From: Candidatus Uhrbacteria bacterium
Lineage (GTDB): Bacteria > Patescibacteriota > Patescibacteriia > UBA9934 > GWF2-40-263
Length of the DNA: 64,000 nt
NCBI GenBank assembly: GCA_026395055.1
Contig: JAPLZK010000003.1
Span: forward strand, 173,987-237,986
Direction: 5' to 3'
A program made the translations under genes and the position numbers. Below are positions 16,461 to 51,388 of the stretch, one piece after another (positions within the stretch are counted from its first letter, which is position 1; each line of letters opens with the position of its first letter). The notes below the pieces were generated by a model. The model had not been told where the DNA came from and made no database searches. It worked only from the letters and a program-made list of their open reading frames with translations.

Positions 16461-16497
16461 AAACAAAAAAATACCTGCACAAGGCAGGTATTTTTTC
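16461..16497 (-). terminator. Rho-independent terminator downstream of rpsI on the minus strand (stem TACCTGC/GCAGGTA followed by a U-run)
   Basis: Hairpin at 16472..16490 flanked by an A7 run on the + strand, which is a U-run on the minus strand. Confidence 0.6.
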
Positions 16498-16901
16498 TAA
16501 CGCTTTGACCATTGTGGGGAGCGTCGAGCGGACTTTTTTCCGAATTTTTTACGTTCACGGATGCGAGCATCACGTGTCATCATTCCTTGTTTTTTCAAAA
16601 CGGTTTTGTATTCTGGGTTGAAATCAACGAGGGCACGAGCAATTCCAAGGCGGATACTGTCCGCTTGTCCTGCTTGTCCTCCACCCTTTACAACAACCTG
16701 TACATCAAACATGTTTTCTGTTCCCGTAAGAACAAGAGGAGATTTGACGGTTTGGTGTTGAAACGTTGTTGGCAAATACTTTTCGAGCTCACGGTCATTA
16801 ATGGTGATCTTTCCAGATCCATTATGGTGAAGGCGAACTTGTGCAACCGCACATTTGCGTCGTCCAACGGCTCCAATATATTTTGTTGCTAATTCAGTCA
16901 T
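16497..16901 (-). CDS. rpsI: 30S ribosomal protein S9
   Basis: GGGQAGQADSIRLGIARAL ... C-terminal RRSPQWSKR. Confidence 0.95.
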   Translation of the reverse strand: MTELATKYIGAVGRRKCAVAQVRLHHNGSGKITINDRELEKYLPTTFQHQTVKSPLVLTGTENMFDVQVVVKGGGQAGQADSIRLGIARALVDFNPEYKTVLKKQGMMTRDARIRERKKFGKKSARRSPQWSKR

Positions 16902-16902
16902 A

Positions 16903-17265
16903 TTAGTTCTTGACGACGAGGCGCTTCAAGCGTTCGTTGCGATGTGAGTTCTTTGGCAACATACGTGATACCGCACGAACCAATACGTCACCTGGATTAT
17001 CTGCCCATACTTTTTTCATGGACGTTGTGCGCAATCCGCTTGCGTACGCTGTGTGACGGAAGTATTCTTTCTGTTCTAAGCGCTTTCCGATGATGTTCAT
17101 CTTTGAAGCATTGATCACTTGAACATGATCACCACCATCTACGTTTGGGACGAACGTAGCTTTTCCTTTTCCCATCAAAAAGCCTACGACTTGTGTTGCA
17201 AGACGTCCTGGGCTTTTTCCATCCGCATCGATGGTGTGAATATTGCGATCAAGTTCTTTTTGCAT
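16903..17265 (-). CDS. rplM: 50S ribosomal protein L13
   Basis: GRLATQVVGFL and GDHVQVINASK motifs. The start was moved to MQKELDRNIHTIDADGKSPGRLAT at 17265 to remove the overlap with rplQ. Confidence 0.85.
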   Translation of the reverse strand: MQKELDRNIHTIDADGKSPGRLATQVVGFLMGKGKATFVPNVDGGDHVQVINASKMNIIGKRLEQKEYFRHTAYASGLRTTSMKKVWADNPGDVLVRAVSRMLPKNSHRNERLKRLVVKN

Positions 17266-17266
17266 A

Positions 17267-17617
17267 TTAGACAAGTTCAATTTGTACGACAGGAGCGCCG
17301 TCACCTTTGCGTGTTCCCATTTTGATGATACGTGTGTATCCGCCATTTCGATCCATATAACGCGGACCGAGGACATCCAAAATTTTGTTTACAGGACTTT
17401 CAGAAGCAAAACGCTTCATCAAATTTCTGCGCGTTGCAAGGGTTGCTTTCTTTCCATCCGTGATGGATCGTTCTACGAGAGAACGGACAACTTTCGCCTT
17501 TGTCTCGGTTGTTTTTACTTTTTCGTGCAAAATAATACTCGCCGCCAAGCTTGTAAGCATAGCGATTCTAGAAGAAGTTCTTCGACCGAGAGTTTTTGTG
17601 GCGTTGCGATGGCGCAT
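17267..17617 (-). CDS. rplQ: 50S ribosomal protein L17
   Basis: MRHRNATKTLGRRTSSR... Confidence 0.95.
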   Translation of the reverse strand: MRHRNATKTLGRRTSSRIAMLTSLAASIILHEKVKTTETKAKVVRSLVERSITDGKKATLATRRNLMKRFASESPVNKILDVLGPRYMDRNGGYTRIIKMGTRKGDGAPVVQIELV

Positions 17618-17631
17618 ATACGTAAACCGGA

Positions 17632-18351
17632 TTATGAAGCATCTGATTCAGATGTCACTTCCGTTTGTGTGTTGAGAAGGATTGAGAAATAATCGATAAG
17701 AGTTTTTGCAGATTGCTCTACAGCAACTTCTGGAGTAACGGTTCCGTCTGTTTCAATGTTCATGATGAGCTTATCATAGTTTGTGATATCGCCCACACGT
17801 GTATTGACCACATGGTAACCAACGTTTCTAACGGGAGAAAACAGGGCGTCAATGGCAATGGTGCCAAGATCATGTGTTTCTCCTGCGCGTTCCTCTGTTG
17901 TGGAATAACCACGCCCTTTACGAACGGTGAGTTCCATCTCAAAGGTTGCTTTTGCTTCTGTAAGATGAGCGATCACGAGGTCTGGGTTCATGATTTCAAC
18001 ATCTGCATTTGGAGCAATGTCTCCCGCTGTGATGGTTTTTAACCCGCTCACACTCAACTTGAGTGTGACAGGTTCATCAGAAAAAACTTTGAGACGAAGG
18101 GTCTTGAGGTTTAAAATGATCTCAAGAGCGTCCTCTTTCACGTTTTCAATTGCTTGAAATTCGTGCGTGACACCTTTCATCTTAACGGCTGTAACCGCAG
18201 CTCCCGGCAAAGATGAGAGCAACACGCGACGCAATGCGTTTCCGAGTGTTGTTCCATAGCCGTAAAAGCATGGTTCTACAACCAAAACGCCTTCGTTTGG
18301 TCGTTCGCCCTTTTCGAACGAAATTTTTGATGGAAGAAGAATGTTCTCCAT
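17632..18351 (-). CDS. rpoA: DNA-directed RNA polymerase subunit alpha, N-terminal domain only (no alpha-CTD)
   Basis: Strong alpha-NTD match (GTTLGNALRRVLLSSLPGAAVT). At 239 aa it ends where the alpha-NTD ends in E. coli, and only 14 nt separate it from rplQ. Confidence 0.9.
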   Translation of the reverse strand: MENILLPSKISFEKGERPNEGVLVVEPCFYGYGTTLGNALRRVLLSSLPGAAVTAVKMKGVTHEFQAIENVKEDALEIILNLKTLRLKVFSDEPVTLKLSVSGLKTITAGDIAPNADVEIMNPDLVIAHLTEAKATFEMELTVRKGRGYSTTEERAGETHDLGTIAIDALFSPVRNVGYHVVNTRVGDITNYDKLIMNIETDGTVTPEVAVEQSAKTLIDYFSILLNTQTEVTSESDAS

Positions 18352-18372: not shown

Positions 18373-18984
18373 TTATCGAGAGTAAAATTCGACGATCAGC
18401 CGTGGGTCAAAGAGCTTTTCAACATCATCCATGGTTGGCTCTCCTGTTACCTTACCCTTCAGTGCGGCTGCGTCAGCATTCAACCATTTTGGAACTTGAT
18501 TTTCCTTTTTCAATTCCCCAATAGCTTTTACGATGCCTTTTTCCTTTTTATTTTCCTTTACGGAAATAACGTCACCAACTTTTATCTGATAAGAAGGAAT
18601 ATCAACCAGCTTGTCATTCACGAGAACAAATCCGTGTCCAACGATTTGACGTGCTTGTTTACGAGTTTTTGCAAACCCGAGACGATAGATCACGTTATCA
18701 AGACGTTGTTCCAGCAATTGAATCATGAATTCAGAAGTGTTTCCTTTATGTTGAGAGGCTTTCTCAAAACATTTTCGGAATTGCTTTTCCAAAAGTCCGT
18801 AAACGGCTTTTGCTTTCTGTTTTTCAAGTAATTGCTCTCCGTATCCAGAAATGCGGCGATGGTTCCCTTGTTTAGGACCATGCACACCTGGTGGGTATGG
18901 GCGTCGGCGGACGTACTTTTCTTTGCCGAGCACAATCCCGAGGCGTCGGGAGAGTTTTACGATGGGAGTTTGATTTTTTGCCAT
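18373..18984 (-). CDS. rpsD: 30S ribosomal protein S4
   Basis: MAKNQTPIVKLSRRLG... and an S4 RNA-binding domain. Confidence 0.95.
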   Translation of the reverse strand: MAKNQTPIVKLSRRLGIVLGKEKYVRRRPYPPGVHGPKQGNHRRISGYGEQLLEKQKAKAVYGLLEKQFRKCFEKASQHKGNTSEFMIQLLEQRLDNVIYRLGFAKTRKQARQIVGHGFVLVNDKLVDIPSYQIKVGDVISVKENKKEKGIVKAIGELKKENQVPKWLNADAAALKGKVTGEPTMDDVEKLFDPRLIVEFYSR

Positions 18985-18987
18985 AAA

Positions 18988-19383
18988 CTAGACACGACGT
19001 GGTTTACGTGGACGACAACCATTATGAGGAAGCGGTGTTAAATCTTTGATAGAAAGGACCTGGAATCCATTTGCGTTTAATGCGCGCACAGCAGAATCGC
19101 GACCTGCACCAACACCCTTTACGAACACATTGATTTCTTTGAGACCAATTTCTTTCACACGGTCAGCAGCAGCTTTGACGATCATTCCCGCTGCGTACGG
19201 TGTAGCTTTCTTTGGTCCTTTGAATCCACAGTTTCCTGCACTGGACCACGCAAGTGTGTTTCCGTTCAGGTCTGTAAGAGTAACAATGGTGTTGTTATAG
19301 GTTGCCTGAACATACGCGTTACCTTGCGCAACGGATTTCACGACTTTCTTTTTCTTTGATTTTGTTTGGGTTACAGCAGCCAT
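18988..19383 (-). CDS. rpsK: 30S ribosomal protein S11
   Basis: NTIVTLTDLNGNTLAWSSAG ... GFKGPKKATPYAA. Confidence 0.95.
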   Translation of the reverse strand: MAAVTQTKSKKKKVVKSVAQGNAYVQATYNNTIVTLTDLNGNTLAWSSAGNCGFKGPKKATPYAAGMIVKAAADRVKEIGLKEINVFVKGVGAGRDSAVRALNANGFQVLSIKDLTPLPHNGCRPRKPRRV

Positions 19384-19384
19384 A

Positions 19385-19771
19385 TTATGTCTTGGTCAAC
19401 GCGCGACGACCACTTCCTGTGGTCTTTCTCACGTTGCCTCGAATGGTTCGTGAATTTGTTTTAGTTCTCTGGCCACGTGCTGGCAAGTGTTTTGCGTGAC
19501 GTGTTCCGCGGTATGCTCCGATTTCTTTCAAACGCTTAACGCTAGAGAGAACATCTCGACGCAAGTCTCCTTCCAATCTACGTCCTTTTTCTACGAGGTC
19601 GCGGATGGATTTAACTTGGTCTTCTGTTAAATCTTTTGTTTTGATATCCCCTTTCACATCTGCTTGCTTTAAGATACTAGCAGCCGTTGTTGGACCCACC
19701 CCATAAATATAGGTAAGGGCGATGCGGATATGTTTGTTGAGTGGAAGATTCACTCCAGCGATACGTGCCAT
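19385..19771 (-). CDS. rpsM: 30S ribosomal protein S13
   Basis: MARIAGVNLPLNKHIRIALTYIYGVG. Confidence 0.95.
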   Translation of the reverse strand: MARIAGVNLPLNKHIRIALTYIYGVGPTTAASILKQADVKGDIKTKDLTEDQVKSIRDLVEKGRRLEGDLRRDVLSSVKRLKEIGAYRGTRHAKHLPARGQRTKTNSRTIRGNVRKTTGSGRRALTKT

Positions 19772-19821: not shown

Positions 19822-19935
19822 TTACCCTTGACGTTGTTTATGTTTAGGATTTTTACAAATGACAACCACACGTCCTTTTCGGCGTGTGACACTGCAATCT
19901 TTACAAATTTTTTTTGCGGATGCTCGAACTTTCAT
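19822..19935 (-). CDS. rpmJ: 50S ribosomal protein L36
   Basis: Hand translation gives [37 protein letters not shown] (37 aa). It is below the 60-aa ORF-track cutoff and sits in the conserved position between infA and rpsM. Confidence 0.85.
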
Positions 19936-19981: not shown

Positions 19982-20203
19982 TTAGAAACGATAAACGACA
20001 CGACCCTTTGTAAGGTCGTACGGACTAATTTCCACTTTCACGTCATCTCCAGGCAAAATGCGAATACGAAACTTGCGCATTTTTCCAGAAAGATAACCTG
20101 TGATGGTTTGTCCATTTTCCAGTTTCACTTTGAAATTTGCAGATGGTAGAAGTTCTTCTACCGTGCCTCGCATTTCAATAAAATCTTTTGTATCCTGACT
20201 CAT
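19982..20203 (-). CDS. infA: Translation initiation factor IF-1
   Basis: 73 aa S1-like OB fold ([42 protein letters not shown]). Confidence 0.95.
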
Positions 20204-20278
20204 AGGTTCTTTGGTTCAGAAAATGCTATCAGATTTTGCTGTAAATCGCAAGCAAAAATAGATTTCTGAGGCGCCGGT

Positions 20279-20307
20279 ATTTTATGTTATTTGCTAAATT
20301 GTGTCAA
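20279..20307 (-). promoter_or_regulatory. Consensus sigma70 promoter for the infA-rpmJ-rpsM-rpsK-rpsD-rpoA-rplQ-rplM-rpsI operon: -35 TTGACA (20302..20307), 17-nt spacer, -10 TAAAAT (20279..20284), minus strand
   Basis: Read from the reverse complement TTGACAcaatttagcaaataacaTAAAAT, about 75 nt upstream of the infA ATG. Confidence 0.6.
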
Positions 20308-20361
20308 GAAATCAACCGGGGATAACCTTGAGCAACATATTTCAGCTAAATTAAGGTGTGT

Positions 20362-22245
20362 TTACGTGAGAACAGCCTTGATTCTTCTGAGTCCAGATCC
20401 GATCGATTCTTCCTTCTGAATCTCAAATTTTCCTAGTTCGGCGGTGTTTGATACATGAGGCCCTCCACAAACCTCTTTTGAGAAGGCGTCTCCCATAGCT
20501 TCATCACCAACGAAATAGACTTTTACCTTATCTCCAACTTCTGCATACTTATCCGTAAATAGTCCGATTGCCCCTCGCGCTTTTGCTTCTTCAAGCGTCA
20601 GCATTTCGAAGTGAACCGGTAACTTCTTTGAAATTGCCTCATTAACCAGCCCTTCAACCTGTTTAATCTGATCATCCGTGAGTCTTTCTGGATACGGAAA
20701 GTCGAATCGGAGGCGTTCTGGGGTGATGTTGCTTCCCTTTTGGACGACCATATCACCAAGAACCTGTCTAAGCGACTGATGAAGTAAGTGAGTTGCTGTG
20801 TGGTATTTAACGCTCATTTCTGACGTATCTGCAAGACCACCCTTGAACTTCTGCTCTGAACCAGCTCGAGAAAGTGCTTGATGCTTTTCTTTTTCGACTT
20901 TAAACGTTTCCATATCGACCGTAAACCCATTCTCTGTCGCGAGCTCTTGTGTCAGCTCAACAGGAAACCCATAAGATTGAACGAGATCAAATGCATCCAT
21001 TCCTGATATCTGTTTATTACTTTCAACAGTCAGGAGCTCAACGAATTTCTTCATTCCCTGTTTCAACGTTTGTTGAAATTTCTTTTCCTCCTTCGCGAGC
21101 TCGGCAAGAACCCTATCTCGAGAAGATGCGAGATTCGGATATGCTTCCGAATAAGCTTCGATGAATGTTGCACCGATCTGAGCACAAACATCTTCTGTGA
21201 TATTCAGCCAATGTGCGAAACGAACGGAACGACGAATTAATCTACGTACAAAATATCCCTGATCTTTATTCGATGGATTAACACCATCACCAATAAGAAA
21301 TGTAGCAGCTCGAAGGTGATCCAAGATCACACGGAATTCATCCGTGTGTGTTTCGTAGGTTCTTCCACTGAGTTCTTCTAGCTTTTGAATAGCGGATTGA
21401 AAAACATCTACACGAAAAATATCTGGATCCCCATTCACCGCCGCGCACACACGTTCAAGTCCACCTCCAAAATCCACGTTTCTTTGTTTAAGCTCCTCAA
21501 AACCTGTTTCTGTCTTCACGTATTGCATGAACACATTGTTTCCAATTTCAACGAAACGCCCACAGTCACAGTTCACATGACATGGTTCGTTTTTCCAATT
21601 TGAAATTTCATGCAAGTTTCGTTCCGCACCAAAATCCCAAAACATTTCTGTGTCTGGACCACCGGGTTCTCCAACAGGCATGTTTGATGGCACGCCAGTT
21701 CTACTCCACCAGTTTTTTTTTTCTGGTTAATAAAAAATACGTTCACCAGATTTCATTCCGTCTTGTTCCACATTTTCACCAATCGCCGCATCAATCCCCT
21801 TTGACGCAAATAATTTTTGCCACAATGCTGCAGACTCTTCATCTCTGGGAATATTCAAATCCGTATTTCCTCGAAATACAGTCACATATAAATTCTTTGG
21901 ATCAAGTCCAAGATTCGTCGTCAAAAATTCAAACATCCATGTGATTTGCTCATTTTTGAAATAATCTCCAAGCGACCAGTTGCCGAGCATTTCAAAAAAC
22001 GTTGTGTGACGATTATCTCCCACTTCATCAATGTCTTGTGAACGAAAACATTTTTGAGAATCTGCAATACGAACACCACGAGGATGTGCCTCGCCGAGTA
22101 AATAAGAAACCATTGGTTGCATTCCGGATCCGGTAAAAAGGGTCGTTGGATCATTTTCAGGGATCAACAATGCGGATGGAAGAATGGCATGACCATGATC
22201 AGCAAAAAACTTCAGGTACTGTTCGCGAATTTCAGAAATCGTCAT
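20362..22245 (-). CDS. alaS: Alanine--tRNA ligase lacking the C-Ala domain; the reading frame is interrupted by one in-frame TAA (21727..21729) next to an A10 homopolymer
   Basis: The two ORF-track pieces (21727..22284 and 20362..21693) are in the same frame, separated by TAA plus 11 sense codons (PEKKNWWSRTG) that match the conserved AlaRS NFW-MGDTGPCGPC region. The catalytic and editing domains are present. The start was moved to MTISEIREQYLKFF at 22245. Confidence 0.75.
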
Positions 22246-22299
22246 AATGCGTGGATTGTACAAAGGAAAGAGATGAAAAGTCAAAAAGGAAAAAACCTT

Positions 22300-34788: not shown

Positions 34789-37293
34789 TCAATCGAATTT
34801 TACGCTTTGTCCTACGTGCAACTTTCCAGATGTTGGTTGTTCAGGTGATTTCTCTGCGGGTTTTTCTACTGGTACCTCGACCGGTTTCGTATCAGGCGGT
34901 GGCACAACAATAGGTTCTGTGACAATCGGAGCGTGTGGAACTTCAACCCTTGGCTCTTGTCGCTCTGGTCGTTTTTGTTCTTGAAGAGATTTTAAGGAAA
35001 TAGTTTGTCCGGTTTGTGATAGTTGTGTGGTGATTTCACGGCGAACTTCTTGTGCTCGTGTATCAGAAATACGTTCAGATGCTCGAGGTGTTCCAGGTGA
35101 ATGAGCACTGGACTGCGGAGATTCTAAGCCAGTTCCTGTTTTCTTTTTGCGTTTACGCTTGCGTTTGCGTTTTTCTCCTTCGAGGACGGGGGCAGCCGAA
35201 TGTGGCGCTTGAGGCTCATTCGTTGTTTGTGAAGGAACGCGCGACAAATTCCCCATCGGTCGAACGGGTGTTGTTATGGGCGGAGACACTTGACCCCGCG
35301 CTGGAACGAGCGGTTGCGATTGCGGCTTTGATTCTTGAGGAACTCGAATTACAGGTTCGCTAGGCGTGTTTACAACAACAGGTTTTTGTTCAACACGAAC
35401 AACAGGCACTGGAATAATTGGTGCCTCGACAACAAGTTTTGGTTCTGGTTGAACAGGAGTTGGTTGTGATAATTCTGGTTTTGGAACAGATTCGACGACA
35501 GGTTGCGGTTTTGGCGCAACAACCACGGGTTCGGATCTTCTTTGTTCCATTGGTTGCGCGGTTGCGACGGGTTTTTGTTCCGGAATCTTTTCGTTCATCT
35601 GAGGTTCCTCTACAACAACCACCTCTACAGGCTTTGGCATGAGTGTTGAAAGAGAAATGGTTGGTTCGTCTGGTAACTTATGATCTTCAACTTCCTGAAC
35701 TTCCGATGAACGCATCTCACGAGGAGATGCTTCTTTGACAGGAACCTTTGGTGGAAGATTGCGTGTATCTGCTGGCTTACCCCCCGTTTTTCCTCCACGA
35801 TTATTCTTTTCCTCACGCACAATCTCAATACAATCTTCACAGTAAATTGGACGTGAGCGATCAAGTTCTACAGGCAAAACCATTTTTTTGCCGCAACGCG
35901 AACAATCATATTCAAATTTTGGCTTCTTTGCGTCCTTTGCTGCCACCTTGTCTGTTTTCTTTTTTTCTTCCGCTTCTGCAAGCATGGTATCAACATCCAT
36001 GTTTCCCATTCCGCTCCACGTCAAAATTTGTTCTTCAATAAATCCACGTTCTTTTGCGTAACGTTCTCGAGAAACTTTAATGACACGCTCTTCTGAATCT
36101 GTCTTTTGAGAAATTGGCGGAAGCGTGATGGCAGAAAACGGCTGACTTGTTACTCCGTTGATGAGCAACTTTAAGTACACGTTATATTTTGGAAGATTGA
36201 TAATGTCTTCTGGTAAAAAACGTGGGGCAAATTCTGTTTCCATGTACTTTGCGTCCGGAGAACCCACACGAAACGAAATAATTGTTCCGACGTTACCAAA
36301 AACCGCTTCACGCACTTCATCTGTAAGCTGCGCAATGTACTGGTGAGCAATGGTTAAACACAAACGATACTTACGTGCCTCAGACAAAATCCCAGCAAAA
36401 GAATCCACAGCAAAGTTTTGGAACTCATCAACGTACAAGTAAAAGTCCATACGGTCTTTTTCTTGCATGTCTACACGTTCCATGGCGGACAATTGCAATT
36501 TCGTAATCAACAGTCCTCCAAGTAAACGAGAACTATCTTCTCCAATACGTCCCTTGGAAAGGTTAACGATGAAAATCTTTCCAGAGTCCATGATTTCACG
36601 AATGTTGATACTGGATTTCACCTGCGCAACAATGTTTCTGATCACAGAAGCAGACAAAAACTGTCCAATCTTGTTTTGGATTGGAGCCACAGCCTCCTGC
36701 GCGTATTTTTCATTATACGAAGCAAACTCTCTCAACCAGAATTGTTTCACCACAGGATCCGTCACATTCGAAACAATACGCTTGCGATAATCTGCATCTG
36801 ACAACATGCGGTTGATTCCAAGCAGCGTTGATCCTTGGTTATCAAGCAATGCGAGAATCGTGTTGTTCAAAATGTACTCCATACGGGACGACCATTGGTC
36901 TTCCCAAATCTTTTTGAAAACTCCCATCATTCCACTTGCGACCAAGTGTTTATGTCGTTCAGAGACGGCCTCCAGGATATTAAATCCAACCGGATATTCC
37001 GCGTCAGATGGATTGAAGTACACAACATCGTTAATGCGCCAGCTTGGAATGTAATTGATGAGCTTTTCTGCCGTGTCTCCGTGAGGATCCACGTAACAAC
37101 AACCGTGTCCTGCGTAAATATCAGAAAGGGTGAGGTTCTCAAGGAGAACCGTCTTTCCCATACCTGTTTTTCCAATCACATACACATGTCGACGGCGATC
37201 GTCGGTTTTGATTCCAAATTTCGTCATCGCATTTCGGAAGTTTGTCTTCGCAAAATAGTTGACCTCGTTTTCATGTTCGTGATTGTAGCCCAT
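34789..37293 (-). CDS. VirD4/TraD/HerA-like (FtsK-HerA superfamily, T4 coupling-protein-like) ATPase with a C-terminal zinc ribbon and a long disordered Pro/Val/Glu-rich tail
   Basis: Walker A VIGKTGMGKT, Walker B LYVDEFQNF, and a TrwB/TraD-like C-terminal AAD motif (VFGNVGTIISFRVGSPDAKYMETEF). Zinc ribbon CSRCGKK...CEDC at about aa 460-480. A tail of roughly 350 aa rich in P/V/E/K with a KRKRKRKRKKK run. Confidence 0.7.
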   Translation of the reverse strand: MGYNHEHENEVNYFAKTNFRNAMTKFGIKTDDRRRHVYVIGKTGMGKTVLLENLTLSDIYAGHGCCYVDPHGDTAEKLINYIPSWRINDVVYFNPSDAEYPVGFNILEAVSERHKHLVASGMMGVFKKIWEDQWSSRMEYILNNTILALLDNQGSTLLGINRMLSDADYRKRIVSNVTDPVVKQFWLREFASYNEKYAQEAVAPIQNKIGQFLSASVIRNIVAQVKSSINIREIMDSGKIFIVNLSKGRIGEDSSRLLGGLLITKLQLSAMERVDMQEKDRMDFYLYVDEFQNFAVDSFAGILSEARKYRLCLTIAHQYIAQLTDEVREAVFGNVGTIISFRVGSPDAKYMETEFAPRFLPEDIINLPKYNVYLKLLINGVTSQPFSAITLPPISQKTDSEERVIKVSRERYAKERGFIEEQILTWSGMGNMDVDTMLAEAEEKKKTDKVAAKDAKKPKFEYDCSRCGKKMVLPVELDRSRPIYCEDCIEIVREEKNNRGGKTGGKPADTRNLPPKVPVKEASPREMRSSEVQEVEDHKLPDEPTISLSTLMPKPVEVVVVEEPQMNEKIPEQKPVATAQPMEQRRSEPVVVAPKPQPVVESVPKPELSQPTPVQPEPKLVVEAPIIPVPVVRVEQKPVVVNTPSEPVIRVPQESKPQSQPLVPARGQVSPPITTPVRPMGNLSRVPSQTTNEPQAPHSAAPVLEGEKRKRKRKRKKKTGTGLESPQSSAHSPGTPRASERISDTRAQEVRREITTQLSQTGQTISLKSLQEQKRPERQEPRVEVPHAPIVTEPIVVPPPDTKPVEVPVEKPAEKSPEQPTSGKLHVGQSVKFD

Positions 37294-37308: not shown

Positions 37309-38934
37309 TCAAACAGGAAGATCAGGTGGGGTAAATAATTCTTCGTCAGATGCGTCTGCGGGAGACGTATCCCCGAAACGACCTTTTGGTAAAAAGGCCT
37401 CTGCGTCTTCATGTTCTATGTCTGTAGGTGCTTTCAAGTGTGGAAGTGTTTCCGGTAATGGTTCTTTTGAAGTGACATATGTTCCTGCAAGACGAGATTC
37501 CGCAGATTCGTGATGTTCCATTGGCATTCCGCCTGGAAGAGGAAATTCATTATCCCCCGCTCCAGGCAACGTGTTCTCCAAGAATGTTGTTGGCAATCCA
37601 ACAGGAGGTTCTGCACGACGTGCTTCTGATTTCTTGATGAGTGGAGCTTTGATACTGATCGTTGGAAAATGCCAAAGCGTTGCCAACTCTTCTGCATTCA
37701 AATAAACAGGATTCGCCCCAATTCCCCAACTGCGCCCTTGAAACGCCTTCATGAGGATTGTTTGTTTTTTTTCATAATCCCACTTCTGCCAGAAGTAATC
37801 ATCCTTTGGAACAGAGGGACCATGCATCTTAAATGAATTCAAGTTCAAGTGAGAATACTGGTTCAAAATTCCCTTAATGATGGTTACACGATCTCCTTTT
37901 TTATAAACTGCCTTTTGCGCGCAATACACAATACGAATCTTCACGGCATGTCCAACCTTTATGGTTTTCTTCATGATGGCCTTTGCTTCATCTTGTTGTG
38001 CGGGACCAAGTTTAAATGCTTTCCAGGGATCTGCTTCTTTTGTTGCTTCTGACGCCATTCCAAAAAATGGCGCGAGATCGATTTCCGTAGCGTGAGCAAT
38101 TAATTCAAATGGTAATTTAAAAACAGTTTGTGCTGCAGCAACAAGGTCATTCTTCTTTGCCGCCTTATCTTCAACACCGAACGTTTTGTTTACATGTGCG
38201 ATTCCCGCCTTTTTCCATTCATGACCGGTTGGCTGAATAACCATCTGAAACCAAAAATGCTCCCCCGGTTTCATTTTAGACATTTGTTCGAGCGTGTAAC
38301 CAAGAGGATCTTTAATTTCTCCTGTCATTTGGTCTTCAAAATCCACATACGTTCGAATGGGAAAATGAGATTCCTTGTCTAACGTAAATTCCGCACCCCA
38401 CATGTCATATTTCTCATCGGGAAAGAGTTTTGGAACTTTTGTGACGTAATCATCAACCTCATTCATTTCCGCATCAGGATACTGCGCGTAAATACCTGCC
38501 TCAATGACGTCTCGGAATTTTGCTTGTGTACGAATAATAAACTGCATGTACCCTTCTTCTGAAACAATTTCAAAAGAAAACGTTGGCATGATTTTTCCAT
38601 CAAACCATTTTTCCTTAAATGTAGGACTAGATTTTGCCGCGTACAGTGCCGCAAATAAGTTTTCAAGCGCCTTTGGGGTTTGTTCTGTCATGGACGGAAC
38701 GTCAACCGCAAGACAAATATATTTTTGTTTTGCCGCGAACACTCCTTGTCGTTCTGCAAGCCACAATTCTGAAAAACCCCACAGAAGTGTTGTGAGGACA
38801 GGGATCCAACCAAACCAGACCAAGAGATCAAAAAAAATGACATCAATCGGTTGATTGAGGAAAGAAAGTGAAATCATTGGGACAGATGATTGCGCGGATT
38901 GTTGGATGATCTGAATCGCAAGCATGGGAAACAT
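37309..38934 (-). CDS. Hypothetical membrane protein (N-terminal TM hairpin plus about 450-aa soluble domain and an acidic Pro-rich C-terminus), co-operonic with the VirD4-like ATPase
   Basis: TM segments (VIFFDLLVWFGWIPVLTTLLWGF); no recognisable domain; 15-nt gap to the ATPase gene. Confidence 0.55.
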   Translation of the reverse strand: MFPMLAIQIIQQSAQSSVPMISLSFLNQPIDVIFFDLLVWFGWIPVLTTLLWGFSELWLAERQGVFAAKQKYICLAVDVPSMTEQTPKALENLFAALYAAKSSPTFKEKWFDGKIMPTFSFEIVSEEGYMQFIIRTQAKFRDVIEAGIYAQYPDAEMNEVDDYVTKVPKLFPDEKYDMWGAEFTLDKESHFPIRTYVDFEDQMTGEIKDPLGYTLEQMSKMKPGEHFWFQMVIQPTGHEWKKAGIAHVNKTFGVEDKAAKKNDLVAAAQTVFKLPFELIAHATEIDLAPFFGMASEATKEADPWKAFKLGPAQQDEAKAIMKKTIKVGHAVKIRIVYCAQKAVYKKGDRVTIIKGILNQYSHLNLNSFKMHGPSVPKDDYFWQKWDYEKKQTILMKAFQGRSWGIGANPVYLNAEELATLWHFPTISIKAPLIKKSEARRAEPPVGLPTTFLENTLPGAGDNEFPLPGGMPMEHHESAESRLAGTYVTSKEPLPETLPHLKAPTDIEHEDAEAFLPKGRFGDTSPADASDEELFTPPDLPV

Positions 38935-39016: not shown

Positions 39017-39940
39017 TTATTTTTTCTTTCCTTTTATCCCCTCCCATGTCACAAGCGCAGGGCTTGCAAGGAAGATAGATGAATACGTTCCCGCAATGAT
39101 TCCTACGATAAGGGCAAGGGAGAACGGACGTGTTGTGTCTCCTCCAAAGAAGAAGATGGCGGTTAAACACAGCAAGGTTGTCATGGATGTGCTAATGGAA
39201 CGACGAATGGTCTGGCGAATACTGACATCAACCGTTGTTTCAAAAGATGGACTGATGTGTTTGAGCAAGTTTTCACGCGTACGATCAAACACCACAATCG
39301 TGTCTGTAATGGAATAACCAAGAACAGTCAGAATGGCCGCTACGAATGCGGTATCAACTTCCCAATTGAGAAACTTTCCAAGAATCGCGAAGACGCCGAG
39401 CGGCACGACAACGTCATGGAATGCGGTGATAATGGTGAGAACACCGTATTTCCATGAAGCAACAGGATGTGTCACTTTACGAAAGGTAAAGGCGACGTAA
39501 GAACCGATGAGCACAAGAATCAAAATGATTCCAAACGCCGCAGACTTTTGTAATTCCTTTCCAATGACTGGACCGATGGAATCAAATTTTTCTTCCGCTG
39601 TTTTGTCTCCGTATGTTTTCTTAAGATCAGACAACAATGCTTGGTGCTGTTCTTCATTTAAACTCTCAAGACGAATGAGCGCTCCGTTCGTGCTTGTTGA
39701 TTGAACAATGACATCATTATGACCAAGTTTTGCAACGTGGTCGCGCAATTCTGTTGTGACAACCGGTTTTTCAAAAGAAACTTCAAGCAAACTTCCTCCC
39801 GTAAAATCGATTCCGAGTTTTAAGCCGAACATTCCGATGGAAACCACACACACAAGCACAATCGCTCCTGAAATGGCGTACCAAAGTTTTCTGTATTTAA
39901 CAATATGGATTTGCATAGGATTATGACTTGTTATCTTCAT
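39017..39940 (-). CDS. secF: Protein translocase subunit SecF
   Basis: SecF signature (GIDFTGGSLLEV) and a 6-TM C-terminal half. Confidence 0.9.
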   Translation of the reverse strand: MKITSHNPMQIHIVKYRKLWYAISGAIVLVCVVSIGMFGLKLGIDFTGGSLLEVSFEKPVVTTELRDHVAKLGHNDVIVQSTSTNGALIRLESLNEEQHQALLSDLKKTYGDKTAEEKFDSIGPVIGKELQKSAAFGIILILVLIGSYVAFTFRKVTHPVASWKYGVLTIITAFHDVVVPLGVFAILGKFLNWEVDTAFVAAILTVLGYSITDTIVVFDRTRENLLKHISPSFETTVDVSIRQTIRRSISTSMTTLLCLTAIFFFGGDTTRPFSLALIVGIIAGTYSSIFLASPALVTWEGIKGKKK

Positions 39941-41999
39941 TTTTCTTTACACCAAAGAGAATTGGTTTGTGTGTCCACTTCCAACCAAAGACGGTATGGA
40001 GATATTGGCGCGCCACATAAATTGCCGTAAACAAACTGAGAACGACTCCAATTCCAAGGGTGAGGGCAAATCCACGAATAAAGCTTGAACTGAACCAGTA
40101 CAACACAACAGAAGAGATGAGTGTGGTGAAGTGACCGTCACGAATTGCAGCCCATGCACGTCGTTCTGCTTCATCTGCGGAGGAGATTAATCCTCTACCT
40201 GATGCGTATTCCTCTTTCAAACGTTCAATAATGAGAACGTTGGCATCAACCGCAATACCAAGAGACAAAACAAGTCCAGCAATACCTGCAAGCGTAATGG
40301 TTACTCCAAAGAGTCTGTACGCAAGCATATTCAATGAAGAGAACAGGAGCAACGCAACAATTGCAATCACACCTGGCAAACGATACATGCCGATCATGTA
40401 AATGGTGACGAGCAAGAATCCGATAAGCGCCGCCATGATACTTTTTTGCAACGAGACAGATCCAAGTGTTGGACCAACAGTTTGTTGTGAAAGCAAGGTG
40501 ACAGGAACAGGAAGCGCACCCGCATTTAAGCGTTGTGCCAAAATCTTTGCTTCATCAAGGGTGAAGTTTCCGGTAATAACCGCACGACCACCATAAATAG
40601 CTGCCTGAACAACAGGAGTTGAAATAGGAGAACCATCAAGAAAAATCGCGATTGGTTTTCCAACGTTTGCGGCAGTGAGTGTTCCAAACAGATCCCCTCC
40701 GTCTTTATCAAACGTGATTCCAACATAAGGATTTCCTGTCTTTTGATCAAATTCTACAACCGCGCTTTGCAATTGCTTTCCAGAAAGTTGTGTGTTTTTC
40801 CAAGGTGACGCTGGAGGCAAAACATCTGCCATGGTGGAAAGCTTCATCGCGATACGTTGAATCTTAAACGCTGGGATCACTTTTTGATCTTGCTTATAAA
40901 TCAAATGGTATCCGAAGTCTGTTTCGACAATATCTGAGATTTTTCCAACAGGAAGCGTTTCTGCAGCCGCTCCAAATGCTGGGACGTATTTATCTGCAGT
41001 TGCGTATCCAAGATCTCCACCATTTGTTGCAGCGCTAGGATCTGTAGAGTTTTTCTTTGCGAGGTCTGCAAAGTTTTGTGGGGTTGCTTCCTTCTTTAAA
41101 TTTGAAATTTGAATATTCGCGTCTATTGCGGACGTATCCTTTGAACATCCCTGCTTGCCCTTTGAACAAATCAAGATGTGCGAAAGATGCATGTTATTTG
41201 CGGTTGTATTTTCAAGCACTTTGAAAATTTCAATAGAACCACCAGATTCAACGGTTTTCCAAAATACAGATCCTGCTTTTGGTTTGTTTTGTGTAAGTGC
41301 TTTTGCGATTTCAGGATATTGGGCAGAATCAGAAGTAATTTTTGGCATTATACCTTTTGTGTCTGCCTTTGCAGCTTCTGTACTTACCTCCGCAACAAGC
41401 TTATCAAAATCTTCTCCTTTTTGTGCACGAAGCAAAACGGCTTGTGCGGCAGCACGGTCTGCCTTTTGCAACTCTGCAAGTTTTGTTTGATCTGCCGCTG
41501 TTGGTTTTGTATCTGTTTTTGATCCTTGTTCTTTAAATTCCAAAACAGGTGTTTCTCCAATTTGTTTAATGGCATCAGAAACATTCAACACACCCGCAAG
41601 TTCCACAATCACACGAGACACTCCGCCTGTTGATGTGGTTTGTACGAGCGGTTCAGAAACACCAAACGCGTTTACACGACGTTCAATCACATCACGAACA
41701 CCAGAAAGAGCGTTTGCGCGATCTTTTTCTGGGATCTCTTTCATGTCCGCAGAATAAACAAGGTGTGTTCCACCCTGCAAATCAAGTCCAAGACGATATG
41801 CATGTTCGTTAAGCACTGGCAAAGAAACGTGCGCTTTCGCTTTTACAAATCCGGCCGTTACATTCCACGCGTGTGGAAAATCATAAAATCCCGCAACAAG
41901 TGTTACGATCAAAAAAACAACGGTTGCAACTTTTGCTTTCCATGGTTTATGAACTTTCTGTGCGTTCTGAGACGTTCGTTTGGTTTTCCAAGTTTGCAT
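39921..41999 (-). CDS. secD: Protein translocase subunit SecD carrying a tandem parvulin-type (PpiC) PPIase insertion in its periplasmic P1 domain
   Basis: SecD N-terminus, P1 segments and 6-TM C-terminus. Inserted at about aa 158-372 are two parvulin-like units, the second with clear PpiC motifs (HLSHILI...NGGDLGYA...VPAF...FGYHLIYK). Confidence 0.85.
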   Translation of the reverse strand: MQTWKTKRTSQNAQKVHKPWKAKVATVVFLIVTLVAGFYDFPHAWNVTAGFVKAKAHVSLPVLNEHAYRLGLDLQGGTHLVYSADMKEIPEKDRANALSGVRDVIERRVNAFGVSEPLVQTTSTGGVSRVIVELAGVLNVSDAIKQIGETPVLEFKEQGSKTDTKPTAADQTKLAELQKADRAAAQAVLLRAQKGEDFDKLVAEVSTEAAKADTKGIMPKITSDSAQYPEIAKALTQNKPKAGSVFWKTVESGGSIEIFKVLENTTANNMHLSHILICSKGKQGCSKDTSAIDANIQISNLKKEATPQNFADLAKKNSTDPSAATNGGDLGYATADKYVPAFGAAAETLPVGKISDIVETDFGYHLIYKQDQKVIPAFKIQRIAMKLSTMADVLPPASPWKNTQLSGKQLQSAVVEFDQKTGNPYVGITFDKDGGDLFGTLTAANVGKPIAIFLDGSPISTPVVQAAIYGGRAVITGNFTLDEAKILAQRLNAGALPVPVTLLSQQTVGPTLGSVSLQKSIMAALIGFLLVTIYMIGMYRLPGVIAIVALLLFSSLNMLAYRLFGVTITLAGIAGLVLSLGIAVDANVLIIERLKEEYASGRGLISSADEAERRAWAAIRDGHFTTLISSVVLYWFSSSFIRGFALTLGIGVVLSLFTAIYVARQYLHTVFGWKWTHKPILFGVKKNEDNKS

Positions 42000-48121: not shown

Positions 48122-49726
48122 TTACTTACAACCCGGTGTCCATTTATGTGTGCAGGTGTTCCCAATACAGGCATCAACCGTGCACCCCTGACCATCGTCG
48201 TTGCATACACCCTCTTGCGGGTTTGCATATGGGAGGAAAACACATCCTTTCTTTGCTTCATCACACGCGTCCGACGTGCACCCGTTTCCATCACTACACA
48301 CGTATGCGTCATGAACGGAACACATCGAATCTTTGCACTTGTCGTTGATGGTACACAGGAGTCCATCGTCGCATTTCAGGGCGTTTGGAACGTGCGTACA
48401 GAGCATGCTTGCACAGACATCTGTTGTGCAAACGTTTCCGTCGTCCAAACATTTTGTGCCATCCGGTTCTTGCGGGTGCATGCATTTGCCGTCCGCGCAT
48501 TTGTCTTGCGTACAGGCATTACCATCATCCGTGCATTTGCCGTCAGATGACGCAGCGTGTTTGCAACCCGTGAATGGATCACACGAATCCGTTGTGCACG
48601 GATCGTTGTCGTTGCAATTCAACGTACTTCCGCCGATGCATGTCCCCGCAGCGCACTGTGAAAGTGCGGTGCAAATATTTGCGTCATCACAGGCAGAACT
48701 GGTGAGAGGTGTATGTTTGCATCCACCATCAGTGTTGCAGACATCTGTCGTACAGCTATTGCCGTCGTCGCAGAGATCTTCATCGGTCTTGCCGTCACAA
48801 TCGTCATCCTTTCCATTACAGGTTTCGGGTGACGCATCCGGCGCATTGCAGATGGCTTTGCCGTCGCTGCAGGCAATGAACTTTCCAAGGCATGTGCCGA
48901 ATTCGTTCTTCTTGTCACATTGAACACCAAATGTATTCTCGTCGATGTTGTCCGTCTTTGCATCGCAGTTGTCGTCTTTCCCGTTACAGATTTCCTGTTC
49001 AGGGACTTGACCGACACATCCAGACAATCCATTCACCGTACACGTACGAGTACCCGCACAAGACCCAAAAGGATTTGTGTTGGCACAGGCCGTAGAAAAA
49101 CCTTTCTGGATGGCAAAGGGCGAACACGCACATGTTGCGTTTCCAGAAGGGAGACACTGTGAGCTTCCAGCCCCGCTCTTTGGATCCGTGACGAATTTGC
49201 ACGTATATCCTTTGGGGCAATCATCGCTCACTGGGTCACAGGTCACTCCACAAAAACTCCCCGCGTCACCATGACTGATGCACGCATTGTTCGAGTCTTT
49301 GGCAAAGTTGCATTGATCGTTTGTCGTGCACGGATTACACAGGTTCAACAAGCGAGAAACACAGACGAACTGAACATCTGTTCCACCACCTACAACCTGT
49401 CCGCATGCGTATCCACTTTGACACGACTGTACACAGATCATCGAGCACTTTTTCCCGTTCTCTGTTTGTAAACAAAGACCGGAATCACAATCATCTGAAT
49501 GTTCACACGCGTAGCCAAACTGACCCGGCGTGATCATGACATCACTTTGCGTTGAGACAAGTACGTCCGTGAACACATCTGCCGTGAGTACCGCATCGAG
49601 TTTTGCATCTCCCGCAACGTCTGCGTTCGATGTGTCCCCATTGGACGGCGCTAAGATCTGATCAGTACCACATCCAATCGATGTGCAGATGAGGCAAAAA
49701 AGACAGATTTTTTGAGAGAGCGTCAT
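48122..49726 (-). CDS. Cysteine-rich tandem-repeat lipoprotein (about 16 copies of the C-D-D-G-N-x-C-T-x-D-x-C motif)
   Basis: Signal/lipobox-like N-terminus (MTLSQKICLFCLICTSIGCG) with an AGGAGG ribosome-binding site 8 nt upstream of the ATG at 49726. Repeated DGNxCTxDxC units such as DGNACTQDKCADGKC and DGNVCTTDVCASMLC. Confidence 0.7.
   Translation of the reverse strand: MTLSQKICLFCLICTSIGCGTDQILAPSNGDTSNADVAGDAKLDAVLTADVFTDVLVSTQSDVMITPGQFGYACEHSDDCDSGLCLQTENGKKCSMICVQSCQSGYACGQVVGGGTDVQFVCVSRLLNLCNPCTTNDQCNFAKDSNNACISHGDAGSFCGVTCDPVSDDCPKGYTCKFVTDPKSGAGSSQCLPSGNATCACSPFAIQKGFSTACANTNPFGSCAGTRTCTVNGLSGCVGQVPEQEICNGKDDNCDAKTDNIDENTFGVQCDKKNEFGTCLGKFIACSDGKAICNAPDASPETCNGKDDDCDGKTDEDLCDDGNSCTTDVCNTDGGCKHTPLTSSACDDANICTALSQCAAGTCIGGSTLNCNDNDPCTTDSCDPFTGCKHAASSDGKCTDDGNACTQDKCADGKCMHPQEPDGTKCLDDGNVCTTDVCASMLCTHVPNALKCDDGLLCTINDKCKDSMCSVHDAYVCSDGNGCTSDACDEAKKGCVFLPYANPQEGVCNDDGQGCTVDACIGNTCTHKWTPGCK
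48150..49250 (-). repeat. Coding tandem repeat array (units of about 78-84 nt, Cys-rich motif) inside the lipoprotein gene
   Basis: Periodic recurrence of the DGNxCTxDxC peptide motif. Confidence 0.55.
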
Positions 49727-49843
49727 CAAGGAAACCTCCTGGCATGGGCAAGCAACATGCCCAGAGATCTTTTCAGAAAAAAATGAAATTGTCAATAGTT
49801 TAGATAAAAAAATCCTCCTTTCAGGTGAAAGAAGGAAGAGGTG

Positions 49844-51388
49844 TCAGGGGACGCAATTACCAATCGGGACGAAAACACATTTGCCTGTGGTTGGATTGCA
49901 CGAATCGGAGGTGCACTTGTTTTGGTCGTCGCACACAAGCGGAGGCTTGCTAATGCAGACACTGTTGTTGCACTTGTCACCGGTTGTGCACGCATCGCCA
50001 TCGTCGCACGGATCGTTGTTGACGTTTGTGAAGATGCATCCCGTTTTTGGATTACAGATGTCATCCGTACACGAGTTACCGTCATCACACTTGTAAACCT
50101 TACCTACACATGTTGTTGCGGAGCACTCACTCGCAAGCGTACATGCGTCGCCGTCGTCGCAGGAGTAACCCTGGTTGGCCGTGTGGTTACACACGCCAAT
50201 GGCTGGGTCACAACTATCGTTCGTACAGACATTATTGTCATTACAAGTCTGCGACAGTCCTTTGCAATTGTTGCCGTAACAGATGTCGCCGATTGTACAG
50301 GCATTGTTGTCATTGCACGGATCCTTGTCGTGAACCGTGAACTGACAGCCTGTTGCCGCAATACACGAATCTTCCGTGCAATCATTTCCGTCCGCGCACT
50401 GCTTCTGCTTGCCAATGCAAACACCAAGCGAGCACTGATCGTCCGTGGTGCACAGACTATTGTCACTACAAGAAAACACGTTTGGAATAGGCGTATGAAC
50501 GCACACACCCGTCCCGGAATCACACGAGTCTGCCGTGCAGACATTATTGTCGTTGCAATTCTTCTGGTTTCCTGAGACACACTGACTCTTTTGACACGTG
50601 TCATTCTGCGTACAAAAGTCCCCGTCGTTGCAATTCGCCCCGTCTGCTTGGGGTGTCGAATAACATCCAGCAACCTTGTCACACAGATCCGCCGTACACG
50701 CGTTCCCGTCATTGCACGTAATTGGCGTTCCGGCACAAGCACCCTTTGCGCACTGATCCGGTGCCGTACAGGCATTGCCGTCATCACACGGATCGTTCGT
50801 GAGCTTTTCATGAACGCACTGGTTGATTTCGTTACAGTAGTCCTTTGTGCATTGATCTGCATCATCACAGTCCACGGCCTTGCCGAGACAGTTGCCGTTC
50901 AGACAATGGTCGTTGTTCGTGCAGACGCTTCCGTCGTCGCATGGGATGTCGATGTTCACGTGCGAGCATCCTGCGATCTTGTCGCAAGGATCAAGCGTGC
51001 AAGGTTTGCCATCTGAACAGTCGACTCCCTTTGGACCAACACATGTTCCGATTGCAGAACAAACATCGCCCGTCGTACAGACATCGCCATCAGAACACGC
51101 GGTACCTTGTGGCGAAGGCTGGTGATGACACTCACCCGTTCCCGGGTCGCACCAATCTTGCTGACAAGGAGTCTTCGTGTCGCACTGTTCGTGCGTCACA
51201 CAGACAAATACATCTGCCGCAATTTCCGGCCCAGTGTCTTGTGGGACATCCGGCGGAAGATCGGGCGAACCCGAGTCCATCGAAACATCACCAGCAACTT
51301 CAGGAGGTGCAGAAACAATGGTCGAATCCGAGCACGCCGATACATAAACACAACCAACGATCAAAAGGGCTTTCGTCAAACGATTCAC
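49844..51388 (-). CDS. Cysteine-rich tandem-repeat lipoprotein, paralog of the adjacent gene (about 16 repeats)
   Basis: Lipoprotein signal (LLIVGCVY). Repeats include DGDVCTTGDVC, DGKPCTLDPCD, DGNACTAPDQC, DGNACTADLCD, DNNVCTADSCD, DGNDCTEDSC and DGNSCTDDICN. A GGAGG site lies upstream. Confidence 0.7.
   Translation of the reverse strand: MNRLTKALLIVGCVYVSACSDSTIVSAPPEVAGDVSMDSGSPDLPPDVPQDTGPEIAADVFVCVTHEQCDTKTPCQQDWCDPGTGECHHQPSPQGTACSDGDVCTTGDVCSAIGTCVGPKGVDCSDGKPCTLDPCDKIAGCSHVNIDIPCDDGSVCTNNDHCLNGNCLGKAVDCDDADQCTKDYCNEINQCVHEKLTNDPCDDGNACTAPDQCAKGACAGTPITCNDGNACTADLCDKVAGCYSTPQADGANCNDGDFCTQNDTCQKSQCVSGNQKNCNDNNVCTADSCDSGTGVCVHTPIPNVFSCSDNSLCTTDDQCSLGVCIGKQKQCADGNDCTEDSCIAATGCQFTVHDKDPCNDNNACTIGDICYGNNCKGLSQTCNDNNVCTNDSCDPAIGVCNHTANQGYSCDDGDACTLASECSATTCVGKVYKCDDGNSCTDDICNPKTGCIFTNVNNDPCDDGDACTTGDKCNNSVCISKPPLVCDDQNKCTSDSCNPTTGKCVFVPIGNCVP
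49900..51150 (-). repeat. Coding tandem repeat array (about 26-28-aa Cys-rich units)
   Basis: Periodic DGNxCTxDxC motif. Confidence 0.55.

Follow-up and report, generated by a model that had tools for sequence, protein, structure and literature searches.

An alpha subunit of RNA polymerase with no domain but the N-terminal one in Candidatus Uhrbacteria and its closest relatives

The rpoA gene at positions 17632-18351 (minus strand) of a 64-kb stretch of Candidatus Uhrbacteria DNA, the whole of which is called the window here, encodes an alpha subunit of RNA polymerase of 239 residues that is composed of the N-terminal domain (NTD) alone. We read it, with a probability of roughly 80%, as a genuine and functional Uhrbacteria-type rpoA whose product has been reduced to the NTD by stepwise loss and no longer makes any of the contacts of the alpha C-terminal domain (CTD).

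The alpha-CTD is treated as near-universal in bacterial initiation, where it recognises UP elements, serves class I activation and contacts sigma region 4. In this study we focus on the content of the short gene, on the DNA that follows it, on the distribution of the CTD in related and distant bacteria, and on the tails that end the CTD-less alpha subunits of this lineage and of its neighbours.

Results

The rpoA gene and its product

Open reading frame, Pfam and NCBIfam models and alignment with solved structures all identify the product as a bacterial alpha subunit with the assembly domain alone. In Pfam, the insert domain PF01000 covers residues 56-172 (E = 5e-32) and the dimerisation domain PF01193 residues 26-221 (E = 1e-24), and PF03118 (RNA_pol_A_CTD) has no match in the 239 residues at E <= 1. 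Pfam and alignment place the NTD at residues 1-226 (17674-18351, minus strand). It is followed by a tail of 13 residues, NTQTEVTSESDAS (17635-17673, minus strand), as delimited by the homolog alignment and the structural model, and by a TAA stop at 17632-17634, the 3' end of the gene reading GAT GCT TCA TAA.

The NCBIfam rpoA equivalogs, which are 298-344 positions long, are covered by the protein over their first 216-240 positions only. NF003519 is passed with 278.8 bits (cutoff 277; profile positions 1-237 of 320) and TIGR02027 with 257.5 bits (cutoff 227.8; positions 2-216 of 298), and the scores against the other rpoA sub-models lie below cutoff because the CTD part is absent. The protein aligns to residues 16-229 of the 314 of the B. 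subtilis alpha subunit (E = 2e-61, ~50% identity), and to residues 24-230 of the 329 of the E. coli one. The sequence-only reading of this DNA, which had described an rpoA of 239 codons stopping at the end of the alpha-NTD, is thereby confirmed by Pfam, NCBIfam and both alignments.

In an alignment of 20 homologs the mean column identity of the NTD is 69%, and the motifs GNALRR (with R41 and R42), GRGY and ETDG are invariant. Past the segment ...LIDYFSILL, the same homologs carry tails of 0-47 residues whose sequence is variable; the tail of the window protein has a net charge of -3 and contains neither Lys nor Arg. An AlphaFold2 model, built on a shallow alignment and of moderate confidence (mean pLDDT 68), displays the expected beta-rich NTD and a long C-terminal helix, with residues 220-239 below a pLDDT of 50.

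Downstream boundary and search for a CTD in the window

Reading the sequence past the rpoA stop, a spacer of 14 nt (tccggtttacgtat; 17618-17631, minus strand) leads to rplQ (L17; 17267-17617, minus strand), which starts at 17617 with ATG CGC CAT, encodes 116 residues and matches the full L17 profile (1-97/97). Since the 14-nt gap is followed directly by a complete rplQ, there is no room for a linker and a CTD; on both points, the distance and the missing space, the earlier reading holds. A frameshift or a read-through towards a hidden CTD was also considered and is rejected, as rplQ occupies every frame 3' of the rpoA stop.

A separately encoded CTD was searched for in the six-frame translation of the 64 kb, which comprises 1,528 segments of at least 25 residues. 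An alpha-CTD HMM made from four textbook sequences found nothing in the window (best E 1.9), and neither did the HMM iterated on 82 CTDs of database homologs (best E 3.1), both values being at chance level. As a control of sensitivity, the iterated HMM was applied to the rpoA loci that do not belong to the CTD-less group, and it detects the CTD in 76/76 of them (E from 1e-9 to 1e-31). Moreover, Pfam searches of ~50 further ORFs of the window yielded neither a transcription factor nor any further subunit of RNA polymerase.

Gene context

All the genes of the operon lie on the minus strand. Directly upstream of rpoA stands rpsD (S4; 18373-18984), preceded by rpsK (S11; 18988-19383) and rpsM (S13; 19385-19771), the three being identified by Pfam. 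Further upstream, rpmJ (L36, 37 aa; 19822-19935) was assigned from its sequence and position, PF00444 being found at the same place in the related contig L082, and infA (IF-1, 73 aa; 19982-20203) from the match of PF01176 to the identical gene of a second related contig, L081. Beyond rplQ, Pfam identifies rplM (L13; 16903-17265) and rpsI (S9; 16497-16901). The operon position rpsM-rpsK-rpsD-rpoA-rplQ is conserved, being present in the window and in related contigs. The longest possible rplM ORF (157 aa; 16903-17376, minus strand) shares 110 nt with the end of rplQ; we retain the 120-aa form, which uses an internal ATG at 17265, two bases past the rplQ stop, and agrees with the gene call in L081.

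By consensus match alone (11/12), a promoter-like site, TTGACA-17-TAAAAT, stands upstream of infA (20279-20307, minus strand) and is the only strong sigma-70-like match in the rpoA operon region; a terminator-like hairpin followed by a T-run, likewise a consensus match alone, lies directly 3' of rpsI (16465-16497, minus strand). The 26 nt upstream of the infA -35 hexamer, gctcaaggttatccccggttgatttc, are not rich in A/T tracts, a composition that agrees with an absent UP element, as a single anecdote and not as evidence.

Upstream of infA stands alaS (the pair spanning 19982-22284), where the spc operon would usually end with secY-adk-map. This arrangement is also found in L081 and L082, from which it follows that the ribosomal super-operon is broken at this point in the lineage. 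The alaS gene itself (20362-22284, minus strand) contains a single in-frame TAA at 21727-21729, between ...ERIFY and PEKKNWW..., that adjoins a run of ten A and divides the gene in two, with ORFs of 185 aa and about 441 aa; in a 95%-related JGI contig it is one ORF of 627 aa. Possible causes of the stop are a nonsense mutation specific to the window, an error in sequencing and a site of read-through.

The CTD-less alpha subunit is fixed in the closest relatives

The best 120 database clusters, 74-95% identical to the window RpoA, are all 220-270 aa long and carry PF01000 and PF01193 only, with PF03118 in 0/120. Comparison of rpoA lengths in related lineages, which the sequence-only reading had proposed as a check, therefore reveals a lineage-wide trait. 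The named members of these clusters are Candidatus Uhrbacteria, Parcubacteria or Patescibacteria, Uhrbacteria being placed by the NCBI taxonomy in the Parcubacteria group of the Patescibacteria group. One representative, P0001, has 239 aa, is 95% identical to the window protein and is found on at least 24 contigs in the rpsD-rpoA-rplQ context. A 104-kb JGI contig among them displays, as in the window, the order alaS-infA-rpsM-rpsK-rpsD-rpoA-rplQ-rplM-rpsI followed by polysaccharide genes, and its rplQ also starts 14 nt after rpoA.

Because it is common to 120/120 of the closest homolog clusters, the CTD-less state is neither chance nor error: the CTD-less alpha subunit is fixed in the lineage and is not a local truncation. 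Short rpoA genes of this type are complete, and no 'partial' flag is warranted in their annotation. The tails of these 120 proteins measure 0-36 aa (median 12), down to P0088, which has none. They are mostly net-negative (median -2), have no conserved column and carry no basic tip, with at most two Lys or Arg in any 12 residues.

Distribution of the CTD across bacteria

A HMMER scan of 1.84 billion cluster representatives returned 5,530 proteins at E <= 1e-10. Among the best 150 of these 5,530 (42-63% identity, 50% clustering), 82 possess a CTD and 68 do not, some of the latter being fragments or frameshifted gene calls; several 'CTD-less' representatives longer than 300 aa, which are frameshifted or chimeric calls with Arg/Ser/Pro-rich nonsense tails or unrelated domains, were excluded from the counts. 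Three database representatives have two alpha-NTDs in tandem. In P0121 the duplication is internal and exact, and it is probably an artefact of assembly. P0123, of 526 aa, combines two diverged NTDs with a single CTD, and P0132, of 664 aa, contains two NTD-CTD units; these two could be genuine paralogous alpha subunits, fused or adjacent.

At the level of genome loci, a scan with a diverse alignment gave, among the matches listed, ~10 Patescibacteria loci and no close Uhrbacteria genome. Among these matches, the CTD is absent from the alpha subunits of a Candidatus Veblenbacteria (L001, 264 aa), a Candidatus Parcubacteria (L003, 261 aa), a Patescibacteria MAG (L014, 273 aa) and a MAG labelled Gammaproteobacteria (L002, 270 aa). 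It is present, in alpha subunits of full length, in five loci of Saccharibacteria, one of Microgenomates, one of another Patescibacteria (L007) and 69 of non-CPR genomes. As the CTD is absent only from Patescibacteria-type loci among the matches listed, its loss is confined to part of the Patescibacteria. The contig L002 (CAZQRI010000022.1, 'uncultured Gammaproteobacteria') encodes a Lys-tailed rpoA product that is 54% identical to the window RpoA and is of the Patescibacteria type, so that the contig or its bin is probably misassigned.

Lys-rich and AT-hook tails in the next ring of relatives

Searching with a profile of 30 diverse sequences brought 119 further clusters, 54-68% identical to the window RpoA, in none of which PF03118 was found; 118 of them were usable. 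Low-complexity tails end most CTD-less representatives, and in this next ring 114/118 alpha subunits carry a Glu/Ala-rich, acidic linker with a Lys-rich tip, the whole tail having a median length of 49 aa (range 12-105). Lys is by far the commonest residue in the last 12 positions, and a KKKRGRPKK-type motif, containing the AT-hook core RGRP, is found in 35 of these proteins (~30%). A basic tip was defined as at least five Lys or Arg in 12 residues, or RGRP, following an acidic linker; by this definition the window protein has none. The Pfam AT_hook model is passed by P0317, which has two copies of the motif, with 20.7 bits against a cutoff of 17.4, and it aligns to single-copy motifs at 9.5-11.2 bits, the cutoff of 17.4 applying to the whole protein.

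These CTD-less alpha subunits (P0280-P0397, among them P0324, and L001, L002, L003 and L014), most of which are tailed, all lie outside the window. P0324, Lys-tailed and 278 aa long, is itself named Candidatus Uhrbacteria and has the synteny of the window; other Lys-tailed relatives are named Buchananbacteria or Parcubacteria group. Judging from its sequence, the Lys/AT-hook tip on its acidic spacer could touch upstream DNA in these relatives and partly stand in for the CTD. Such a tail may keep contact with upstream DNA, so that, across the group, 'no CTD' should not be equated with 'no alpha-DNA contact'. In open-access papers and preprints we found nothing that links AT-hooks to the alpha subunit or to CPR bacteria, nor any analysis of these tails, and the tail series seen in the relatives is possibly an undescribed variant.

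Order of events

A neighbour-joining tree was calculated from 78 NTDs over 226 columns, with Kimura distances and 200 bootstraps. Every replicate recovers the window clade as monophyletic (200/200) and places a CTD-less group next to it (200/200). In 180/200 replicates none of the first three successive sister groups has a CTD; the median number of successive CTD-less sisters is five, and these sister groups are Lys-tail or AT-hook forms. The deeper nodes of the tree are weak, and a larger tree calculated without support values scatters the Lys-tail forms among CTD-bearing Patescibacteria, which reflects either several independent replacements or poor resolution. By parsimony on the neighbour-joining tree, the tail-less state was probably derived from a tailed ancestor that was already CTD-less. 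Since the window clade is nested in the Lys-tail group and itself lacks the tip, it probably represents the last stage of a reduction in steps.

Other features of the window

Several genes outside the rpoA operon deserve mention. SecD (692 aa; 39921-41999, minus strand), followed by SecF at 39017-39940, contains a PPIC-type peptidyl-prolyl isomerase (rotamase) domain at residues ~257-372, between the P1 sub-domains. Two adjacent genes at 48122-49795 (557 aa) and 49844-51388 (514 aa), both on the minus strand and in a region of raised G+C (about 0.49-0.51), encode proteins that match only the Cys-rich 'Dictyostelium repeat' PF00526, over three and seven stretches respectively; they are probably surface proteins. 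An 834-aa protein (34789-37293, minus strand) has TrwB/TraG-type coupling-protein domains and a treble-clef zinc finger, and next to it lies a 541-aa ORF (37309-38934) with no family match; the two may belong to a DNA-transfer or uptake machinery. In the whole 64-kb window, a tRNA scan found no tRNA genes and an Rfam scan found no family at the gathering threshold.

Discussion

Proposed mechanism and origin

The conservation of the NTD, its ~50% identity to that of B. subtilis and the invariant motifs, GNALRR among them, lead us to predict that the window protein dimerises and nucleates the assembly of beta and beta' into an alpha(NTD)2-beta-beta' core enzyme. Without the linker and the helix-hairpin-helix CTD, this enzyme could reach neither A/T-rich UP elements nor class I activators nor sigma region 4 through an alpha-CTD. 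It would then depend on sigma and on elements of beta and beta' to recognise promoters, regulators would act through those subunits or by occlusion, and activation of the class I type would be impossible.

Truncations have established that the alpha-NTD on its own can dimerise, assemble the core and support basal transcription, whereas UP elements and many activators require the CTD (summarised in PMC8321222). B. subtilis cells relying on a CTD-less alpha subunit grow for hours at about half the normal rate, and they express genes of ribosome synthesis and of secondary carbon sources at a lower level (PMC4495994). By analogy with this work in E. coli and B. subtilis, the window protein is likely to be an RNA polymerase scaffold without alpha-mediated contact to UP elements or class I activators, and the simplified mode of promoter recognition and regulation suggested by the sequence-only reading is a plausible extension of the published truncations (PMC8321222; PMC4495994). 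The marked absence of full CRP/FNR-type activators from CPR genomes (PMC12531629) fits a polymerase devoid of class I-type activation.

The reduction probably took place in steps. Saccharibacteria, Microgenomates and part of the other Patescibacteria keep the CTD; within the Parcubacteria group, a large clade would have exchanged it for an acidic linker with a Lys-rich or AT-hook tip, which, from the identity of the motif, probably makes non-specific or minor-groove contact with A/T DNA upstream; and the sub-clade of the window would finally have dropped the basic tip, leaving 0-36 non-conserved, mostly acidic residues. The more specific proposal, that the AT-hook/Lys tip replaced the CTD as a minor-groove A/T-DNA module and was then shed by the window sub-clade, which was left with no alpha-borne contact to DNA or activators, is tentative, and we rate it somewhat below an even chance.

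Alternative explanations

The alternative that survives best, though we consider it improbable, is that upstream contacts are supplied by another lineage-specific protein associated with RNA polymerase, or by an extension of sigma, beta or beta'. Nothing speaks for it directly; the other polymerase subunits and sigma are encoded outside the window, several ORFs of the window have no family match, and yet no candidate was seen among the window genes. Such a protein would be compatible with our explanation of the alpha subunit itself.

The short acidic tail could also be a functional module that takes the place of the CTD, either as a docking site for a basic DNA-binding partner or as a DNA mimic. 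The mostly net-negative tails of the window clade and the acidic linker common to the larger clade would agree with such a role, but a segment that varies from 36 residues to none, as in P0088, that has no conserved column and that AlphaFold2 models at low confidence with no predicted order makes it very unlikely.

Slightly less probable again is a split alpha subunit, in which another place in the genome would encode the CTD as a small protein of its own, acting in trans or docked on RNA polymerase. The CTD search covered 64 kb of the genome, which leaves space for such a gene; however, the window contains none, and more than 230 homolog clusters are without a CTD at the rpoA locus. Moreover, in the relatives the place of the CTD is taken by another module, a basic one, which suggests that the CTD itself has disappeared. 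The CTD works through the local-concentration effect of tethering, and this effect would be lost once it is untethered.

That rpoA was cut short through faulty sequencing or assembly, or through a nonsense mutation of recent date, is refuted by the comparative data and has practically no probability left: the apparent in-frame stop of alaS indicates that local errors or mutations do occur in the window, but the complete rplQ after 14 nt leaves no CTD-coding DNA downstream, the NTD is strongly conserved, and 120 homolog clusters, as well as at least 24 independent contigs, have the identical architecture. The reading that we retain is that of a genuine alpha subunit reduced to its NTD.

Significance

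A widespread environmental lineage without an alpha-CTD sets a natural lower bound on what a bacterial RNA polymerase needs, and it would be predicted to possess promoters and regulators that work only via sigma, beta and beta'. If the proposed series is true, sister lineages with and without the tail, in the same synteny, constitute a natural experiment on the role of upstream contacts. The series from CTD to AT-hook/Lys tail to nothing also raises the question whether an AT-hook of 10 residues could substitute for a domain of 80.

In the open-access papers and preprints we found no analysis of the alpha subunit in Patescibacteria. One sentence of PMC8321222 states that CTD loss 'is also present in Parcubacteria'. 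The work cited there for this loss (Nelson & Stegen 2015, PMC4508563) contains neither 'polymerase' nor 'rpoA' in its main text, so that the claim in print comes down to a single line with no visible support.

Comparison with known systems

The canonical RpoA proteins of E. coli (329 aa) and B. subtilis (314 aa) share with the window protein the NTD (PF01193 and PF01000) and the gene position between rpsD and rplQ. They differ from it by a linker and a CTD of ~80 aa (PF03118) that binds UP elements and activators, both of which are missing here. The homologous assembly-platform subunits of other domains of life, archaeal Rpo3 (subunit D) and eukaryotic Rpb3-AC40, are naturally without an alpha-CTD. 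The window RpoA is nevertheless clearly of the bacterial type, since it reaches only 31.5 bits against the archaeal subunit D model NF001988, whose cutoff is 153.

Laboratory constructs offer a close parallel. E. coli alpha(1-235) and B. subtilis RpoA-del have essentially the boundary of the window protein, which ends 13 residues past the NTD, and they still assemble into active core enzyme (PMC8321222; PMC4495994). The window RpoA, however, is natural and fixed in its lineage, whereas B. subtilis RpoA-del is a conditional laboratory allele that halves the growth rate (PMC4495994).

Naturally CTD-less alpha subunits have been described in the endosymbionts Hodgkinia and Tremblaya and in the rpoA of the Euglena plastid, where, as in the window, the CTD has been lost and the NTD kept in a small genome (PMC8321222). 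The window rpoA belongs with these known cases. Hodgkinia, Tremblaya and the Euglena plastid nonetheless reside inside cells, as endosymbionts or organelles, whereas Uhrbacteria are ultra-small bacteria of the environment. The nearest comparison remains that with the Lys-rich or AT-hook-tailed alpha subunits, such as those of Veblenbacteria (L001), Uhrbacteria (P0324) and Buchananbacteria (P0377), whose NTD is 54-68% identical, whose synteny is the same and whose CTD is equally absent. These sisters end in a tail of 12-105 aa with a KKKRGRPKK motif or a Lys run at its tip, whereas the window RpoA and its 120 closest clusters have no basic tip. A CTD-less alpha subunit in a lineage of the free-living type is thus notable without being unheard of, and what our work adds is the contrast between tail and no tail.
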